Of a stretch of DNA of 64,000 nt, positions 1-12,962 are shown piece by piece. How positions within the stretch are numbered: position 1 is the first letter of the stretch; each line of letters opens with the position of its first letter. Origin of the DNA: Gemmatimonadota bacterium (GTDB lineage Bacteria > Gemmatimonadota > Gemmatimonadetes > Palauibacterales > KS3-K002); contig CP070722.1 in NCBI GenBank assembly GCA_020350785.1, positions 1,133,939 to 1,197,938 of the forward strand, in the 5' to 3' direction. The translations under genes were made by a program, and so were the position numbers. The notes beneath the pieces are model-generated. The model saw only the letters and a list, made by a program, of their open reading frames with translations. It searched no databases and was not told the DNA's origin.

Positions 1-625
1 CCTGCTTCTCATCGGCGCGCAGGGCGTCGCGGTCGCCCTCCAAATAGCGATCGAACGGCGCGCCCGGCGTCAGCAGCGTGGCCTCGAACGCTTCTATGGC
101 CTTGGCCATGTTCCCGAAGGTCACCGGATCGTCCGCGCCGGGGAACGCCGCGGCGAAGCGCTCCACGTACTCGGGGATGCTCATCAGAGTCGCTACGGCA
201 CGCTCGGGGTTGCTGTTCATTTCCACCGCCGCCTGGACTGGCCCCATGGCCTGCTCCTCCAAGTCCTTGGCGCGGCCATCCCAAAATTGAGCGATGTTGA
301 GTACCGCGTTCAGAACCGTCGGCGCGTTTCGAGGCCCTTTCTGCCAGCCGTGCCCGATTGAAGTCTCCAGCAGATCCACGCCACCGAGACCGACGTTGTG
401 ACAAGTGTTACAGCTGATCAGCCAGCTGGAAGACAGACGCGGCTCGAAGTAGAGAAGCTTGCCAAGCTCGATCATCTCCGGCGTCAGCGGAGTGTCCTCG
501 AGCTTCGGCGGCACAGTTGGGATCGGCTTGAACAGGCCCTGCGCCCGTTGCATGAGCTCGTCCTGATCGACACTGGAAGCTCCGATTACCAGCATCAGCG
601 GTAAAGCGAGAAGAAGCTTTTTCAT
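1..625 (-). CDS. ccpA: Di-heme cytochrome c peroxidase (CcpA/MauG family), partial: N-terminal ~208 aa, C-terminus lies beyond the window start
   Basis: Not in the ORF track because the frame is open to position 1. Translated by hand from ATG at 625..623 (RBS-like GGAG a few nt upstream): MKKLLLALPLMLVIGASS... signal peptide, then CNTCHN heme-binding motif and the conserved FWDGRA motif typical of bacterial CcpA. The overlapping track ORFs 9..404(-) and 78..290(+) are in other frames and look spurious. Confidence 0.8.
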   Translation of the reverse strand, partial: MKKLLLALPLMLVIGASSVDQDELMQRAQGLFKPIPTVPPKLEDTPLTPEMIELGKLLYFEPRLSSSWLISCNTCHNVGLGGVDLLETSIGHGWQKGPRNAPTVLNAVLNIAQFWDGRAKDLEEQAMGPVQAAVEMNSNPERAVATLMSIPEYVERFAAAFPGADDPVTFGNMAKAIEAFEATLLTPGAPFDRYLEGDRDALRADEKQ

Positions 626-661
626 CGTTCGTCTCCTCGGTTACCCCAAAGGAACCGTTCT

Positions 662-2728
662 TTAGTCTCCCACTTCCGCCGTCCGCGATGGTGCGCCGCG
701 ATCACCGGACGGCGGCTTCTGCGAGGCGGCCTGCTCAACGCCTCCGCTTTTCTTGATCTCCTCGTACCAGCCGGGATGGTGCCGCTTGACCGATTCCTCC
801 GACATCTTGCCCGTGAGCCAAGTCCAGCTCATCGGATACTCTTCCGGGTGGAAGATGACGAAGAAGAAGTGCCAGACGATCACCGCCAAAGTTGCCAGCC
901 AAGCCTCGTAGTAATGGATCGTCTGCGCCGCCGATACGCTCCAAGACGGCAGTATCCTGACCGCCCATTGCGGCCACCAAAGGATGATGCCCGTGAGGAT
1001 CATCACGATGGTTCCCCAAACCAGCGCCCAGTACTCCGCCTTCTGGGTATAGTCGTAGCGACCGAACTTCGCCTTGTTCCTGCTCTGGAAGGTGTAGTAG
1101 CGGATGTTATCGTAAAGCTCCTTGATATCCCTCCAAGCCGGCATGATCGATCTAAACTCGTCTCGCCCGCGATTAGTCAGGAAGATGTACCACATGTGGT
1201 AGAGCGACGTGACTACCATCACCACCGCAAAGATGCGGTGCAGGTCGCCCCGTACCGTCTCGGTCATGCCGACGCTGGACAATCCTTCGACCCACCAGGC
1301 CTCCGGGAAGCGCAGAGCGAACCCGGTGATCACCAGCATGATGAACGAGATCGTCAGGAGCAGGTGTTGGACGATCTGGGTTCGGTCGAACCGCATCACA
1401 AACCGCGAGGACTCTTCCAGTTCTCGCCGCTCCACCATGAAGTGATTCATAATCATCAGGTTATGAACTACCATCAGCCCGATGATCAGAGCGATCAGCA
1501 CGATATAGATGTCGCGGATGATCCGATTGATGGGGTTGGCCGCCATCGATGTCGTCTCGTGTGTGTAGCTGGAGGCGAACTTGGCGGTCGCATCATCGTG
1601 GCATTGCCCGCAGGTCTGCGGCAGATTGGCCGGGTGGATCGTGGAGGTCGAGTCTTCCTCCGGCAGCACCGCATGCGCCGTATGACAGTTAACGCATGTC
1701 GCCGTCTCCTCGCAGCCCCGTCGCGTCGTCCAGCCGTGGTAGCTGTCCACGTAGGACCCGACGACGCCGCCCTGCAAGTTGTACTTGGCGATGATCACTG
1801 GGTCGTCGTGGCACGGACCGCACGTCTGCGTGGCCTGCCGCGCGGCGCAGGTGGCCGCTTCCGGATCGTGCGGCGACAGAATTAGGTGCTCGCCGTGACA
1901 GTCGGTGCAGGTCGGGCTGTCGCGGACTCCTGTATTCAGGGCCCGCCCGTGAATGGAACCCTCATACTCGAGCTGAATGTCAGGGTGGCACTGCCCACAC
2001 GTCGCCGCCACGTTGAAAGGATTAATCTTCGACCGCGGATCCACCGAACCCTTCAAGTCGTGCACGCCGTGGCAGTCCGCACAGGAAGCCGCTGTGGCGA
2101 TTCCCCGCTCCGCCCCGCGCCCGTGCACGGACTGCGCATAGGCGGCAAACGACTGGGGTAGCTTCACAATCCGGTCGGTGAGCAATCCCGCCGTACCGTG
2201 ACATTCGGCACAGGTCCCGGGCAGCCGCACCTTGTGCGTGCGCGCGCGCGGATTGCTGCTGGGTAGGATGTCGTGGCTTCCGTGGCAGTTGGCACAAGTA
2301 GGCGCACGCGGGTTACCCCGCGCCAGCGCGTAACCGTGCACGCTCTCCTGGTACGTCCGATCGACCGATCCGTGGCAATTGCCACAGTCCGGCGGCTCGA
2401 GCTCCGCCGCATGCGGAAACTCCGAACCCTGCAGGTCCTGGTGGCACATCACGCACGAAATGCCCAACGCCCCGTGCACCGAGCCGGCCAACTCCTCCGG
2501 GTCGACGACCAGCTGATCTGCGTTCGGCAACCCCTGAAACATGGAGGCCGAAGAGTGGCACATGAGACAGGTCGAGTCATCCTGGGCCAAGCTGGCCCCA
2601 GAGCTACCTAGAACGAGAAAGCTCGCGATGCCAGCGCCTGCCAGAACCCTCCGTAGCGCTCGGCTGGCCCAGCGATCGTCAGGATCGGCTTTCATAGCAC
2701 TTAACCCTTGGCTCGTGTCGCCATTCAC
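662..2728 (-). CDS. Multiheme c-type cytochrome (11 CXXCH motifs) fused to a C-terminal di-heme cytochrome b domain (HydC/FdnI-like); CbcL-like quinol:cytochrome c oxidoreductase
   Basis: 688-aa ORF with N-terminal signal peptide and 11 CXXCH motifs (CLMCH, CVMCH, CGNCH, CANCH, CAECH, CADCH, CGQCH, CTDCH, CGPCH, CVNCH, CGQCH). The C-terminal ~260 aa has 4-5 TM helices with His in TM1 (RFDRTQIVQH), TM2 (HRIF) and a double-His TM4 (HYYEAW...VWHFFF), the NiFe-hydrogenase/formate-DH gamma cytochrome b pattern. The architecture matches Geobacter CbcL. A 36-nt gap separates it from the co-oriented ccpA downstream. Confidence 0.8.
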   Translation of the reverse strand: MNGDTSQGLSAMKADPDDRWASRALRRVLAGAGIASFLVLGSSGASLAQDDSTCLMCHSSASMFQGLPNADQLVVDPEELAGSVHGALGISCVMCHQDLQGSEFPHAAELEPPDCGNCHGSVDRTYQESVHGYALARGNPRAPTCANCHGSHDILPSSNPRARTHKVRLPGTCAECHGTAGLLTDRIVKLPQSFAAYAQSVHGRGAERGIATAASCADCHGVHDLKGSVDPRSKINPFNVAATCGQCHPDIQLEYEGSIHGRALNTGVRDSPTCTDCHGEHLILSPHDPEAATCAARQATQTCGPCHDDPVIIAKYNLQGGVVGSYVDSYHGWTTRRGCEETATCVNCHTAHAVLPEEDSTSTIHPANLPQTCGQCHDDATAKFASSYTHETTSMAANPINRIIRDIYIVLIALIIGLMVVHNLMIMNHFMVERRELEESSRFVMRFDRTQIVQHLLLTISFIMLVITGFALRFPEAWWVEGLSSVGMTETVRGDLHRIFAVVMVVTSLYHMWYIFLTNRGRDEFRSIMPAWRDIKELYDNIRYYTFQSRNKAKFGRYDYTQKAEYWALVWGTIVMILTGIILWWPQWAVRILPSWSVSAAQTIHYYEAWLATLAVIVWHFFFVIFHPEEYPMSWTWLTGKMSEESVKRHHPGWYEEIKKSGGVEQAASQKPPSGDRGAPSRTAEVGD

Positions 2729-2821
2729 GACGCCTAGCGAGCGGCCGGTCTTTCCCAGCCCTGTATCTCCAATGCACGTGGCCAGTTAGGGCAAGGTCCA
2801 TGCCGGAGGGCAATCTGCGTC

Positions 2822-3037
2822 TTATTGTCTCAGGGCACGCCAGACGAACGGTATGCTGAAGACCAAAGCCACGCTGGCGATAGCGAGCAAGCCTCCGAGG
2901 GCGAGCTCGGAGTAGAAGCGGGCGGTCCCGGCGCCGAACTCGCAGGCCCGGTTCAGCCGGGCTATCGACCGGTTGGCGAGGAGGTAGGCGGCGGCCAACA
3001 TCACCAGCGCTACCAGAACGACGAGGAAGACGTTCAT
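2822..3037 (-). CDS. Small hypothetical membrane protein (~71 aa, two predicted TM helices)
   Basis: C-terminal part of track ORF 2822..3262. The upstream part of that ORF overlaps ORF 3042..3701, so the start is placed at the internal Met (MNVFLVVLVALVMLAAAYLL...). Hydrophobic segments: LVVLVALVMLAAAYLL and LALGGLLAIASVALVFSIPFVW. Confidence 0.4.
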   Translation of the reverse strand: MNVFLVVLVALVMLAAAYLLANRSIARLNRACEFGAGTARFYSELALGGLLAIASVALVFSIPFVWRALRQ

Positions 3038-3041
3038 CGGA

Positions 3042-3701
3042 TCAGGTGCCGCGATTCCGCGGAACTGCTCGCCGCGCCGCGACCTTGCGGGTCGCCCAGT
3101 AGACGATCGCGCCCAAGCCCAACAACGCCAGCGCCAGCAGCGCGATGTGGGTGGGCGCCTGACTCCTCCAAGCCGACGGCAGTAGCACGGCACGGGGCAG
3201 CTCGTCCGGGGCCGAGACCAGGAGCCCGCTCGCGTCCCACTCGAAACGCGGATAGGCGTCATCCAATTCGCTCCCCCGCGACGCGCCGATGATCAGTAGG
3301 CGGATCATCGTGGTGCCGGAAAGTATGCGCGTGTTCGGCACGAACACCGGTATGCGCGAGTAGTCGCCTTCCACGCGGTAGCGTATGCGCACGTGGACGA
3401 CCCCCGGCAATCCGGCCGGCGCGGAGAGTTCGGACATGCCGGGCCGTTCTTGGACCTCCAGCTCGAAACCGGGGCCGAAGGCGGCCTCCACCTCGGCGTC
3501 TTGGCCCGGCAGCTGCACCGCCTCGAAGATCAGTGGCGCGCCCGTCCGCTCGATCCGATAGGACGCCAGAATCTGAGCGCTCGAGCCCCCGAGGTTGATC
3601 CTTACGTGCGCGGATTGCAAGTCACCAGCCGCATGGCTCGTGTCCTGCGCCGCTGGCCTATCGCCGCCGAGAAGCGCGAGAAGAACAACGAGGATCTTCA
3701 A
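3042..3701 (-). CDS. Hypothetical secreted protein with N-terminal signal peptide and C-terminal TM anchor followed by an Arg-rich tail
   Basis: 219 aa. TTG start read as M (MKILVVLLALLGG...). C-terminus is ...THIALLALALLGLGAIVYWATRKVAARRAVPRNRGT, a hydrophobic helix plus a basic tail reminiscent of a sorting-signal architecture. No recognisable catalytic motif. Confidence 0.45.
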   Translation of the reverse strand: MKILVVLLALLGGDRPAAQDTSHAAGDLQSAHVRINLGGSSAQILASYRIERTGAPLIFEAVQLPGQDAEVEAAFGPGFELEVQERPGMSELSAPAGLPGVVHVRIRYRVEGDYSRIPVFVPNTRILSGTTMIRLLIIGASRGSELDDAYPRFEWDASGLLVSAPDELPRAVLLPSAWRSQAPTHIALLALALLGLGAIVYWATRKVAARRAVPRNRGT

Positions 3702-3864
3702 TCAGCTCGCTCCGCTTGAAGCCTACGTGCGAACGCCCGTGAGCTGCCTACTAATACTGATGCCTGACCGGTGATCCGCGCCAGGGTGGCCAATATTGCG
3801 CTGGCCGAGCCCTTTCTTGCGCCCTATTATGAGCCCGTGATCACACCCACGGGTAGTCCCTGAA

Positions 3865-4830
3865 GTGCTGTCGACGGCCGCATATCTCAAACTGGGAATC
3901 AGCCAAGTTCAGGAGCGGGCGCGCCGGGCCGTCGCCGGCCTGGTCGACTGTCGTGCCTGTCCGCGTGACTGCCGTGTCGACCGCTTGGCCGACAAGTGGG
4001 CCGCCTGCAAGACGGGCCGCTACGCCGTAGTGAGCAGCTGCTTCCCCCACTTGGGCGAAGAGGATCCGCTGCGCGGCTGGAACGGCTCCGGCACGATCTT
4101 CTTTTCCCACTGCAACCTGCGTTGCGTCTTCTGCCAGAACTACGACATCAGCCAGGGCGTCCCACCGGGGCCGGCCGCCGCGGGCTCGCGCCCCGCCGAG
4201 ATCGCAGCGATGATGCTGGGGCTTCAAGAGCTGGGCTGCCACAACATCAACCTCGTCACGCCGGAGCACGTCGTCCCTCAAGTGCTCGAGGCGCTGGCCA
4301 TCGCTGTTGACGGCGGCCTGACGCTTCCGATCGTCTACAACACCAGCGCCTACGACGCGTTGGAAAGCCTGGAGCTACTGGACGGCATCGTCGACATCTA
4401 CATGCCCGACTTCAAGTTCTGGTCGCCGGAATCGAGCCGGCGGTACATGAAGGCGGCAGATTATCCCGAGGCCGCCAGGGCCGCGATCAGGGAGATGCAC
4501 CGGCAGGTCGGCCCTCTCCAGATCAGTGCGGACGGACTGGCGACCCGCGGCGTGCTTCTCCGCCACCTGGTCATGCCCGGTGGGCTGGAGGAGACGCGGG
4601 CGATCCTCTCGTGGATCGCGACGGAGCTGGGTACCGACACGTATATCAACTTGATGGACCAGTATCGCCCGGCGGGCCGGGTCTGCAGCGAGCACTACCC
4701 GGAGATCAACCGGCGAACCGCGGCCTCCGAATATCGAGAGGCCCACGAGATCGCCGCTGCGCTCGGCCTGACGCGCCTGGACGAGCGGGGTCCTCCCGCG
4801 CGGCTCTTTCGCCGGCTGAACATCACCTGA
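3865..4830 (+). CDS. Radical SAM enzyme, AmmeMemoRadiSam-system / PflX (COG1313)-type
   Basis: 321 aa. N-terminal Cys cluster CRACPRDC...C immediately followed by the canonical radical-SAM motif CNLRCVFCQNYDIS (CX3CX2C). Length and motif order match the PflX/AmmeMemoRadiSam radical SAM family. No AMMECR1 or Memo partner is visible in this window. Confidence 0.75.
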   Translation: MLSTAAYLKLGISQVQERARRAVAGLVDCRACPRDCRVDRLADKWAACKTGRYAVVSSCFPHLGEEDPLRGWNGSGTIFFSHCNLRCVFCQNYDISQGVPPGPAAAGSRPAEIAAMMLGLQELGCHNINLVTPEHVVPQVLEALAIAVDGGLTLPIVYNTSAYDALESLELLDGIVDIYMPDFKFWSPESSRRYMKAADYPEAARAAIREMHRQVGPLQISADGLATRGVLLRHLVMPGGLEETRAILSWIATELGTDTYINLMDQYRPAGRVCSEHYPEINRRTAASEYREAHEIAAALGLTRLDERGPPARLFRRLNIT

Positions 4831-10130: not shown

Positions 10131-12962
10131 TCATCGCCCCTCGGCGACGGTCGTCTCTCCGGATGTCTCGGGCCGGCTTGGCCAGCCTACCCGCAGATCA
10201 TTCCAGTGAAGCAGCGTGTTGAACACGAGGGCATGGCTGCCGCGGGTCTCCCAGCGCCAGAAAGGCCGATTGGCGAAAAGGACGACGTGCCCCCGCCCGA
10301 CCGGCGCATCGATGACCGCCGGCGTGTCCGCTATCTCGCCCGCCCCCCGCAGCATACCGCTCATCAACGTACCTTCCTTCGCGAACTTGACGACCACGCG
10401 CGGAACCTCCTTCTCCCAAATCTCATCTTTCAGCCATTCCGGGATGAAGGGAGTGTCGAGGTCGTCGCTCACCTCGAACACCGGCGTCTGGTTGAAGTAG
10501 ACAGCCAAAGATTCCGGGTAGCCATAGACGATGGGGCTCGCGGCGTCTGCGATCATCGCCTTGAGAACCGTGCCCCTGGCCACCAACCCGCCGGTGCGCT
10601 TGATTTGGACGCGACGTGTGATCGCCATGTCGATGGGCAGCGCCGCGGTGCTCCCCTCAGTGATGAAAACGCCACCCGCGGCGACGAACTCCTTTAGGTT
10701 CTTCAAGCCGTCATAGCCCATGCCGAGGCGGACATCATCCGTCTCGTCGATGACGCCGATGCTGGGATACTGCGCATCGCGCCGCCAGGGGATCGGCACG
10801 CCGGCCTCCGTGGTCCCCCCAATCAGCGTCTGCGGATCGGCTCGCGTACGTGGCATGATCACCACATCGAAGCTCGATAAATCCGCCGTCGCCAGATCCT
10901 GCTCAGAGAGATGGGTGTAGGGAATGCCGATGTGATCGAAGGCGAAACGCCACCAGCCGGCATCCTGCGGAGTCGACACCCAGGTGTGCACCAGCGCCAC
11001 CCGCGGCACCTCCACCGTGTGCATCGCCACGTCGGGTGACCGGCCGGTGCCGTGGATCTCGAGACCCAACTCGCGCGCCGCCTCCTCCAAACGATCGCTC
11101 AGGTCGGCCGGGTTCCCCGCCGCAGGGATGATGAAGCTGCCCGCGGCGAACGCGCGCCGGTCCGCCTCGAACTGCGCCTCCGCCGCCTGCACGTTGATGT
11201 CCTGGCCCAAGCGGAAACGCAGCTGCGCAAAATTGTCGTCCGTCGTGTTGTTGACCAGATAGAAATCGCGATTACGACCATTGAGCGCGCCGGCTACCAC
11301 GGTTGGCTCTTCCAACAGACGCATGCGGGCCGAAAGGATACCCGGGTCGTCGACCCGATGGGCCTCCACCTGGTGCAAGTACGGAAGAGTCCAGCCGGTG
11401 TCATCGTAGGGTGGCTGAGCGTCTTCCGGAAACTTCTGCACATCCAGCAGCACCCTCACCAATGTCCGATACGGTTGATCCAGCCGCACGACGTACGAAC
11501 CCCTGGGCGCGGACCTCTCCGCACCACCATCGTCTGCGCCTTCCGACTTCCCACCTTCCGCCGACCACTTCAGGTCCTCCTCCGCGATGTGCACCTCAAC
11601 CCCCTGCTCCATCAGCAGATTCACCAGCTCGGCAGTCGCCAGCGGCCGTCTTTGGTCGGGCGGAATCACCCAGGCGTAGGGCGCTTGGCTCGCGCCCTTC
11701 TCGACGGCGCGCACGCCTCTCAGGTAGAAGTTGTCGAGAAATTCCCCGCCGCGGTCCGCCACGTACTTCAGAGCGACGAGTACGCCGCTTTGCATGTAGT
11801 TCGTGTTGTTACGGAGGGACCACATCGCCTTCTCCAGCGGCGGGTTCGGCCGGTACCATTCCCGCGACGTCGCCGACGGTCTCAGCTCGCGCTCCATCGT
11901 ATCGGCTCCGCGGTTGCCAAGCGTCTCGTAAAATCGGCCGATGCTGTTGCGCGTGTTGGCGATCCACATCAGGTAGTTGGCCGCCCAGCCGGTGTAGAAT
12001 GCGTGTGTCCACACTCCCGGCATCCCCCGCTTGGTCAGCTGAGTGACCTCTTCATGAGAGATATTGTGCCATTCGTCGATGGTCAGCGCATCGATTTCCT
12101 CGTTGTAAGGGCCGCTGCCCGTCGATACGTACAGGTAGTAACCCGACTCGTGGAGATCGTGCATAACCGTGGGCTTCCAGTACAGGTAGCGGGTGAGCGA
12201 GTTGCGAGTCAGAGCCAGGGCGAGCCCGAAACCGTCCCGGTTGTTGTCGTGCGCCACGTACTTGCCCCAGTACGGCAGGCCGGGACCGACATCGCCGTGC
12301 GCCTTCGTGTATCTGTAGACATCCACCATCCGGTCACGGCCATCCGGCTCCAGGACCGGCACGATAACGGTGATCACGTTATCGCGGATCGCCCGCACGA
12401 GTGGTGTCTCTTCAACGGCCAGGCGGTAGGCCAGTTCCATCACCATCTCCGGCGCACCCGTCTCCGGCGAATGCAGGCCAGCGGTCAGGTAGTAGACAGG
12501 CTTCGCAGCGGCGATGATCTCGCGGGCCTCGGCGGCTTCCAGCGCCCGTGGATCCGCTAGCCGGCCCAGATAACCGCGGTAACGCTCCAGATCGGCGAGC
12601 GTCGACTCGTCCGCGATGATCACTTCGATCATCTCTCGACCCTCTTCCGTGAGCCCGATGCCGCGTACCTCCACGCGCGGCGAGGCGTCCGCCAGCGCCC
12701 GCATGTATCCGTAGATCTCCTCCGTGTCGTGCAGGATGTCGGGCGCGCCGATGATCTCGCCGAAATGGTCGAGCGGCGACGGCACGGCTTCCGACCTCGG
12801 CAAGTGATCCACTAGATCACTCGAGAAGCGAGGATCCGTGGTGTATCGCTGGATTCGCTCGGCGTATTCCGTATCCGGCTCCTGCGCCCAGAGGCGCGGT
12901 GCCGCAAGCATGCCCGCAAGAGCAAACGGCGCAACAAGCCTCCAGAGCATTTGGCGTCCCAT
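10131..12962 (-). CDS. Large secreted M14-family zinc carboxypeptidase-like protein (943 aa) with long C-terminal extension
   Basis: Signal peptide. The HSPETGAPEM HxxE zinc-binding motif in the N-terminal third is consistent with peptidase M14. The remaining ~550 aa have no motif I can assign. Confidence 0.6.
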   Translation of the reverse strand: MGRQMLWRLVAPFALAGMLAAPRLWAQEPDTEYAERIQRYTTDPRFSSDLVDHLPRSEAVPSPLDHFGEIIGAPDILHDTEEIYGYMRALADASPRVEVRGIGLTEEGREMIEVIIADESTLADLERYRGYLGRLADPRALEAAEAREIIAAAKPVYYLTAGLHSPETGAPEMVMELAYRLAVEETPLVRAIRDNVITVIVPVLEPDGRDRMVDVYRYTKAHGDVGPGLPYWGKYVAHDNNRDGFGLALALTRNSLTRYLYWKPTVMHDLHESGYYLYVSTGSGPYNEEIDALTIDEWHNISHEEVTQLTKRGMPGVWTHAFYTGWAANYLMWIANTRNSIGRFYETLGNRGADTMERELRPSATSREWYRPNPPLEKAMWSLRNNTNYMQSGVLVALKYVADRGGEFLDNFYLRGVRAVEKGASQAPYAWVIPPDQRRPLATAELVNLLMEQGVEVHIAEEDLKWSAEGGKSEGADDGGAERSAPRGSYVVRLDQPYRTLVRVLLDVQKFPEDAQPPYDDTGWTLPYLHQVEAHRVDDPGILSARMRLLEEPTVVAGALNGRNRDFYLVNNTTDDNFAQLRFRLGQDINVQAAEAQFEADRRAFAAGSFIIPAAGNPADLSDRLEEAARELGLEIHGTGRSPDVAMHTVEVPRVALVHTWVSTPQDAGWWRFAFDHIGIPYTHLSEQDLATADLSSFDVVIMPRTRADPQTLIGGTTEAGVPIPWRRDAQYPSIGVIDETDDVRLGMGYDGLKNLKEFVAAGGVFITEGSTAALPIDMAITRRVQIKRTGGLVARGTVLKAMIADAASPIVYGYPESLAVYFNQTPVFEVSDDLDTPFIPEWLKDEIWEKEVPRVVVKFAKEGTLMSGMLRGAGEIADTPAVIDAPVGRGHVVLFANRPFWRWETRGSHALVFNTLLHWNDLRVGWPSRPETSGETTVAEGR

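Follow-up and report, generated by a model that had tools for sequence, protein, structure and literature searches.

Fusions of a periplasmic multihaem cytochrome c to a membrane-bound cytochrome b have been catalogued as the CbcL/MtrH/MtoC family, with members in 15 phyla and one entry from Gemmatimonadetes (Zhong & Shi 2018, PMC6295460). According to this survey they carry 3 to 23 haem motifs and mostly six transmembrane segments; they occur in Fe(III) reducers as well as in Fe(II) oxidisers, and bidirectional operation has been proposed. Outside Geobacter, proteins of this superfamily have no experimentally assigned function, and metal reduction or oxidation is usually assumed. Another kind of system, the tri-haem quinol peroxidases, is credited in PMC10301912 with quinol-driven reduction of hydrogen peroxide (H2O2) in the periplasm without bc1. 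Here we report on a 64,000-nucleotide (nt) stretch of a Gemmatimonadota genome (contig CP070722.1), hereafter the window, in which a gene for an 11-haem cytochrome c/di-haem cytochrome b fusion is followed on the same strand by ccpA, which encodes a di-haem peroxidase. We propose, with about even confidence, that in the clade to which this genome belongs the fusion protein acts as a menaquinol dehydrogenase feeding CcpA, either directly or via a small soluble carrier, and that H2O2 would thereby be reduced in the periplasm.

An initial annotation had described the product of the fusion gene as a 688-amino-acid (aa) protein. An open reading frame (ORF) of that length is present and opens with GTG at 2728, but the real start is probably the ATG at 2695, giving a product of 677 aa, because homologues begin at a methionine 11 residues into the ORF. 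Both numberings are used below, the 688-aa one counting from GTG 2728 and the 677-aa one from ATG 2695. The NCBI annotation of the fusion protein is truncated at its N-terminus: the public protein P0001 (622 aa, 100% identical) begins at ORF residue 67. The part absent from P0001 (window 2530..2728 (-)) includes the signal peptide and haem motif 1, and P0009 shows the same fault. Long ORFs antisense to the fusion gene, for example 776..1885 (+), were set aside as high-GC artefacts.

CxxCH occurs exactly 11 times in the translation, at residues 54, 92, 115, 145, 173, 216, 244, 274, 303, 345 and 373 (688-aa numbering), and the variants CxxxCH, CxxxxCH and CxxCK, which were also sought in it, are absent. 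Conservation was read from two alignments, one with 12 and one with 46 homologues. Across the larger one, every one of the 11 motifs is invariant; among the candidate distal ligands, ten His are invariant (677-aa numbering: H74, H120, H141, H191, H212, H249, H270, H320, H341 and H379) and H95 is nearly so. With 11 CxxCH motifs and 11 conserved further His, the number therefore fits eleven bis-His haems, and to judge from its sequence the domain looks like an electron wire without an obvious catalytic haem. Pfam matched c7/c3-type multihaem domains in the protein. In an AlphaFold2 model built from the 46-sequence alignment (mean predicted local distance difference test, pLDDT, 81.7; predicted template-modelling score 0.71), the pLDDT of the haem domain is mostly 85 to 94. 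A single-sequence search of the PDB with this domain gave nothing significant, and a profile search gave only 28pb_A, a 278-aa 'Cytochrome c' matching the first four haem motifs (profile residues 31-171, E 5e-9). Among solved structures, chain A of 28pb may come closest to a template for the domain. Ahead of the haem domain, a Sec-type signal peptide could be read by eye from its basic n-region, its hydrophobic core and its S-L-A site; A37 and Q38 are almost invariant in alignments A1 and A2, and the model has a helix at residues 7-29, inside the signal-peptide region.

The C-terminal part matches Ni_hydr_CYTB (PF01292) at residues 446-628 (688-aa numbering) with E 7e-20. Among NCBIfam models it is nearest to the formate dehydrogenase gamma subunit, TIGR01583, at 68.9 bits compared to a cut-off of 115.85, which is below equivalog level. 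No genes for molybdopterin or Fe-S subunits, the FdnGH-type partners, were found near the fusion gene in the window or in the related loci whose contexts were inspected. Escherichia coli FdnI (1KQF_C) aligned with the domain at E 1e-13 as a single sequence and at E 6e-15 with a profile. A Foldseek comparison of the model with the PDB also placed FdnI first (E 2.6e-6, template-modelling score 0.81 normalised to FdnI) and HyaC second, all matches being confined to the b domain and none falling on the c domain. The b-haem ligands of FdnI, which we take to be His18, His57, His155 and His169, align with H444, H486, H594 and H609 in 677-aa numbering (H455, H497, H605 and H620 in the 688-aa form). 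These four predicted ligands are invariant in all 46 homologues, and KRHHPGWYEEIKK, the cytoplasmic tail, is similar to the FdnI tail. The initial annotation had described an 11-haem domain fused to a di-haem b domain of the HydC/FdnI type, complete in its His ligands, and the motif count, the Pfam match and the aligned ligands agree with that description.

The attachment of c-type haems is periplasmic, and both termini of FdnI are cytoplasmic. The predicted topology is therefore a signal peptide, a periplasmic haem domain, a helix TM0 that leads the chain inward, and an FdnI-like bundle; the haem domain is thus not cytoplasmic, and all four axial His are in place. The model has five helices after the haem domain, and TM0, which bears an invariant H411-N412 pair, has no counterpart helix in FdnI. 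Three further His of the membrane domain were also noted (677-aa numbering; window 665..1534 (-)). H411, in TM0, and H500, 14 residues past the bP ligand, are invariant in all 46 homologues, and H616, inside the motif HPEEYP, is nearly invariant. Their role may lie in a quinone site or in binding a further cofactor. The coordinates of all these features are collected in Table 1.

Table 1. Coordinates in the window of the fusion gene, the parts of its product (residues in 677-aa numbering except for the ORF) and the ccpA junction
Feature	Coordinates	Strand	Residues	Details
11-haem cytochrome c/di-haem cytochrome b fusion	662..2728	(-)	688 aa	maximal ORF, GTG 2728, stop codon 662-664
Sec-type signal peptide	2585..2695	(-)	1-37	begins MKADPDD, ends GASLA, followed by QDD
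Periplasmic 11-haem c domain	1535..2584	(-)	38-387	
Extra transmembrane helix TM0	1430..1534	(-)	388-422	helix in model; predicted to return the chain to the cytoplasm
FdnI/HydC-type four-helix cytochrome b domain	746..1393	(-)	435-650	
Intergenic spacer	626..661	(-)		36 nt; Shine-Dalgarno-like GAGGAG, 7 nt ahead of the ccpA ATG
ccpA, 5' part	1..625	(-)	first 208	ATG 625, open to window base 1; signal peptide, first haem motif CNTCH

By its sequence, the fusion protein belongs in the CbcL/MtrH/MtoC superfamily. It has the signal peptide and periplasmic multihaem domain of that group, its HydC/FdnI-like b domain, and a similarity to the counterpart of a catalogued member: over its full length, haem and membrane domains included, it aligns with a 19-haem protein of Caldithrix abyssi (31% identity, E 1e-102). 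This 932-aa protein, from a metagenome-assembled genome (MAG), is the presumed counterpart of Cabys_319 (920 aa) in the catalogue. The likeness to CbcL drawn in the initial annotation thus stands, for layout and superfamily membership. The six transmembrane helices, with the sixth at the extreme C-terminus, that mark the superfamily were not found. None of the 119 close homologues bearing the anchor motif has a sixth helix after HPEEYP, and the tail of the window protein, read by eye, contains no hydrophobic stretch. The fusion protein is not filed as a CbcL orthologue, because it has 11 haems rather than 9 and lacks the sixth helix; its N-terminal haem spacing also sets it apart.

The same annotation had presented the architecture as rare, and an 11-haem variant outside Geobacter as undescribed. 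Neither claim holds. A word-indexed search returned more than 2657 proteins, of which the top 120, from MAGs of Gemmatimonadota, Acidobacteriota and Planctomycetota, are 58 to 78% identical to the fusion protein. An exhaustive search of 50%-identity representatives gave 1028 clusters at E<=1e-30. When one genome was scanned for each GTDB species, at least 565 loci were confirmed, extending to Verrucomicrobiota, Ignavibacteria, Zixibacteria, Calditrichota, Brocadiia and Omnitrophota. Eleven is the commonest haem count among the nearest relatives: exactly 11 CxxCH motifs are present in 111 of the 120 close homologues and in 67 of the 150 best representatives. The 11-haem entries of the 2018 survey (Table S2 of PMC6295460) include Opitutus terrae, Lacunisphaera, Omnitrophica, Dadabacteria, Planctomycetes and Lentisphaerae. 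The architecture is common and already known.

Among the representatives with at least 9 haems (P0121-P0270), two types could be separated cleanly. In type A, to which the window protein belongs, the three final spacings between haems are about 29/42/28, the C-terminal hydrophobic segment is absent, and the cytoplasmic tail is FdnI-like. In type B the last spacings are 25/30/28 and a C-terminal sixth helix is present; the MtrH/MtoC-like forms with 11 and 19 haems in the 2018 table are of this type, and no type-A entry was found there (PMC6295460). The superfamily and its 11-haem members outside Geobacter are thus already known, and it is the type-A sub-type that is under-described. Both types also include expanded forms with 13 to 22 haems, which look like internal duplications of the repeating haem module. 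In Caldithrix abyssi (L061, 7889..14895), the two types occur as tandem paralogues, a 642-aa type-A protein, 38% identical to the window protein, and the 932-aa, 19-haem type-B protein with its sixth helix. H411 and H500 are also His in this type-B paralogue. The Caldithrix pair is preceded by a gene for a 402-aa signal-peptide protein without Pfam match, which may be a beta-barrel.

The gene that follows the fusion gene on the same strand is a ccpA with a signal peptide, as had been annotated from the start. The part inside the window matches CCP_MauG (PF03150) with E 1e-54, and its best solved relatives are two Geobacter sulfurreducens proteins, CcpA (3HQ6, E 2e-88) and MacA (4AAL, E 4e-88). 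The second haem motif lies beyond the window edge and was judged from a full-length orthologue at the related locus L081. This orthologue has 352 aa and two CxxCH motifs, and its residues 2-341 align with 3HQ6 (E 2e-156). No third-haem or membrane-anchor domain was detected in it, its N-terminus being a signal peptide without an extra CxxCH. From these alignments, CcpA is predicted to be a canonical soluble di-haem peroxidase. In the spacer between the two genes no terminator-like hairpin was found. A sigma-70 promoter scan of positions 1..3900 found nothing either, a scan that says little for Gemmatimonadota.

The distribution of the pairing was then followed with a tblastn search for CcpA over about 160 fetched loci, orthologous contigs standing in for the DNA past the ccpA edge of the window. 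Besides the window, ccpA adjoins the fusion gene only in L001, L002, L003, L005 and the P0004 contigs (L081, L082, L084). These amount to six genomes with the window included, that is, 6 of the 7 sampled genomes of the clade, and on a neighbour-joining tree the six fall in one Gemmatimonadota clade, with L083 nested among them. The distance from the stop codon of the cytochrome gene to the start codon of ccpA is -4, 15, 27, 36, 42 or 196 nt in the six genomes, the value -4 denoting a stop/start overlap. At none of the clade loci does another ORF with at least four CxxCH motifs occur inside 6 kb. No multihaem or porin gene was found within 10 kb on either side in the clade members, nor any other multihaem (at least two CxxCH) or porin gene in the whole 64-kb window, and a porin-cytochrome or Mtr-type cluster beside the fusion gene is absent from both.

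The clade-specific pairing leads to the following proposal. The fusion protein would be an inner-membrane oxidoreductase between quinol and periplasmic cytochromes. Its FdnI-type di-haem b domain would exchange electrons with the quinone pool, presumably menaquinone, and by analogy with FdnI and CbcL would oxidise quinol at a site on the cytoplasmic face. The two b-haems would carry the electrons over the membrane to the eleven bis-His c-haems in the periplasm. In this clade the cytochrome gene would have departed from the multihaem clusters typical of its relatives and be co-transcribed with ccpA, CcpA being the most plausible electron acceptor. The outcome would be quinol-driven periplasmic reduction of H2O2, with the cytochrome and CcpA together forming a two-gene counterpart of the fused quinol peroxidases. 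Since the gene lies outside multihaem clusters and is paired with ccpA, feeding CcpA appears to be its likeliest local role, and the chain from quinol to peroxidase, which the initial annotation had put forward, is plausible as a whole. A piecewise precedent exists in vitro: in Geobacter, the c domain of CbcL passes electrons to PpcA, and PpcA-E pass electrons to the high-potential haem of MacA (PMC10582990). A stronger version, in which an 11-haem/di-haem-b dehydrogenase of the extracellular electron transfer (EET) type was recruited as a dedicated donor that docks directly to CcpA, forming a two-subunit menaquinol:H2O2 oxidoreductase, is offered only tentatively. If correct, it would mean that H2O2 is respired without bc1 or soluble cytochrome c, and that the quinol-peroxidase function of the tri-haem enzymes was invented independently.

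Several observations weigh against a role in feeding CcpA. The linkage is absent outside the clade, and the pairing is confined to 6 distinct loci, with 7 fetched copies, out of the approximately 160 fetched loci plus the window. Within the clade, L083, whose cytochrome is 73% identical, is syntenic and has no ccpA next to the cytochrome gene, so that the cytochrome would there have a role that does not need CcpA. The flanks are conserved across the clade, L083 included (radical SAM and ADH genes upstream; FBPase, SBP5, histidine kinase and sigma-54 regulator genes downstream), and part of the conserved adjacency is therefore plain synteny. Finally, oxidation of quinol at the cytoplasmic face by an FdnI-type site would dissipate proton-motive force, needlessly for an acceptor as strong as H2O2. 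At L083 itself (12001..12135), only 133 nt separate the cytochrome gene from the FBPase gene, and ccpA was either cleanly lost or never inserted.

How the wider family is embedded was examined at 133 related loci whose flank measured at least 4 kb, neighbour families being counted over 80 loci. A further ORF with at least four CxxCH motifs was present inside 6 kb at 107 of the 133 loci. The recurrent neighbours were 8-10-haem cytochromes with MtrC/MtrF-like domain matches (35 of 80 loci), 10-22-haem c7/c3-type cytochromes (25 of 80), pairs of Rieske and cytochrome b genes, and NapC/NirT-type cytochromes; certain lineages also had MtrB/PioB-like barrels or CcmF/ResB biogenesis genes near the homologue. 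This suggests a signature of extracellular or periplasmic electron-transfer clusters, in agreement with the view in the literature. The labels of two neighbour clusters were rejected. The commonest cluster, first taken for a porin, consisted mainly of the 8-10-haem cytochromes, joined by single linkage to one MtrB/PioB-like protein, and a 'GMC oxidoreductase' cluster was made up mostly of ORFs antisense to the 8-10-haem cytochrome genes.

Such neighbourhoods speak for a rival explanation, in which the fusion protein of the window oxidises quinol for general purposes, or as the entry to EET, and feeds other periplasmic or outer-membrane cytochromes encoded elsewhere in the genome, while ccpA is only a neighbour, perhaps co-regulated for protection from oxidative stress, whose product is fed by the usual bc1/ACIII-cytochrome c route. 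The retention of the cytochrome gene without ccpA at L083 fits this explanation as well, and so does the share of the adjacency that synteny accounts for. An EET conduit, which the initial annotation had named as an alternative, thus suits the family at large. It has no local support, however, given the lack of other multihaem or porin genes in the window and around the gene in the clade members, and the very short or overlapping junctions with ccpA are typical of functionally linked operon partners. We regard this explanation as possible but rather doubtful.

Reverse operation, as proposed for MtoC of Fe(II) oxidisers, appears unlikely. Periplasmic or extracellular donors would then deliver electrons to quinone at the cytoplasmic face and build proton-motive force, with CcpA as a competing sink or an unrelated protein. 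FdnI, the closest solved fold, does run toward quinone reduction, and the bidirectionality proposed in the 2018 survey, with its Fe(III) reducers and Fe(II) oxidisers, would accommodate it (PMC6295460). However, the eleven bis-His haems would be expected to have low potentials, which suits electron output, no donor-oxidising enzyme or outer-membrane module was found nearby in the window or at loci of the L081/L083 type, and the ccpA linkage is left without a rationale. Least probable of all, and very unlikely in our view, is that the CcpA homologue serves mainly as a periplasmic carrier or regulator relaying electrons from the 11-haem protein to other acceptors, a role once suggested for MacA in Fe(III) reduction by Geobacter: its fragment matches MacA as well as CcpA and MacA exchanges electrons with periplasmic cytochromes, but MacA is now viewed as a peroxidase with a role in oxidative stress (PMC10582990), and the orthologue aligns over its length with a solved Geobacter di-haem peroxidase, no third domain being detected.

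A few neighbouring genes deserve mention. Upstream of the fusion gene and on the same strand, the window has a gene for a 219-aa signal-peptide protein at 3042..3701 (-), without Pfam or NCBIfam match, and between the two a possible small ORF with two membrane helices at about 2822..3036 (-). At L081 and L083, a BON-domain protein or a C14 peptidase is found in place of these two ORFs. In Ignavibacteria and Zixibacteria (L033, L037, L039, L042, L043), a fused CcmF/ResB-like gene of about 800 aa lies roughly 200 to 560 nt upstream of the homologue. The planctomycetotal locus L009 (104..4307 (-)) has a 643-aa ORF with 22 CxxCH motifs beside a 768-aa ORF, whose N-terminal haem motifs and weak MtrB/PioB porin match mean that it may be a cytochrome-porin fusion.

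If the fusion protein does feed CcpA, the clade-specific operon would give CbcL-like proteins a concrete and testable second role, quinol-driven peroxide reduction, distinct from EET. The pairing also provides a handle on the electron supply of CcpA in Gemmatimonadota, and tools that flag 'CbcL-like' genes as markers of iron reduction may over-call EET in such genomes.

The known systems can now be compared with this locus. QPO of Aggregatibacter and YhjA/Ccp of E. coli are single polypeptides, a cytochrome c peroxidase to which an anchor helix at the N-terminus and a third c-haem are added. They share with the proposed pair the quinol-driven reduction of H2O2 in the periplasm without bc1. Here, in contrast, CcpA is a soluble di-haem protein, a separate 11-haem/di-haem-b protein would oxidise the quinol, and neither the anchor nor the third c-haem was found in CcpA, whose 352-aa orthologue aligns end to end with di-haem CcpA. 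FdnI, the gamma subunit of E. coli formate dehydrogenase-N (1KQF chain C), has the same four-helix fold, the four ligand His, and the motif HHPxWYxEI in its cytoplasmic C-terminal helix. It docks to the Fe-S subunit FdnH, whereas the domain described here is fused to a haem-c domain via an extra helix and has the additional conserved His H411, H500 and H616.

CbcL itself (GSU0274; Zacharoff 2016; Zhong & Shi 2018, PMC6295460) resembles the fusion protein in its signal peptide, its multihaem c domain, the one linking helix and the HydC/FdnI-type di-haem b domain. From the tabulated haem positions of GSU0274 (34, 57, 82, 105, 129, 158, 186, 229 and 257; Table S2 of PMC6295460), the membrane-proximal spacing is 28/43/28, compared to 29/42/28 in the window protein. 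The two differ in haem number, 9 in GSU0274 against 11 here, and in their N-terminal spacing. As criteria for CbcL in the strict sense we took nine c-haems spaced as in Geobacter, an identity above about 57% inside the Desulfuromonadales cluster, and a function as the menaquinol oxidase needed to reduce low-potential extracellular acceptors. With respect to the CbcL/MtrH/MtoC group, the window protein lacks the sixth C-terminal helix of nearly all catalogued members, its tail being FdnI-like, and its gene is paired with ccpA and not with EET genes. The Geobacter route from CbcL or ImcH via PpcA-E to MacA or CcpA has the same two protein families at the ends of the chain, and the CcpA of the window is most similar to Geobacter CcpA and MacA. 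In Geobacter, however, the genes are not linked and electrons pass through a tri-haem carrier, whereas here the genes are adjacent, with no carrier gene nearby.

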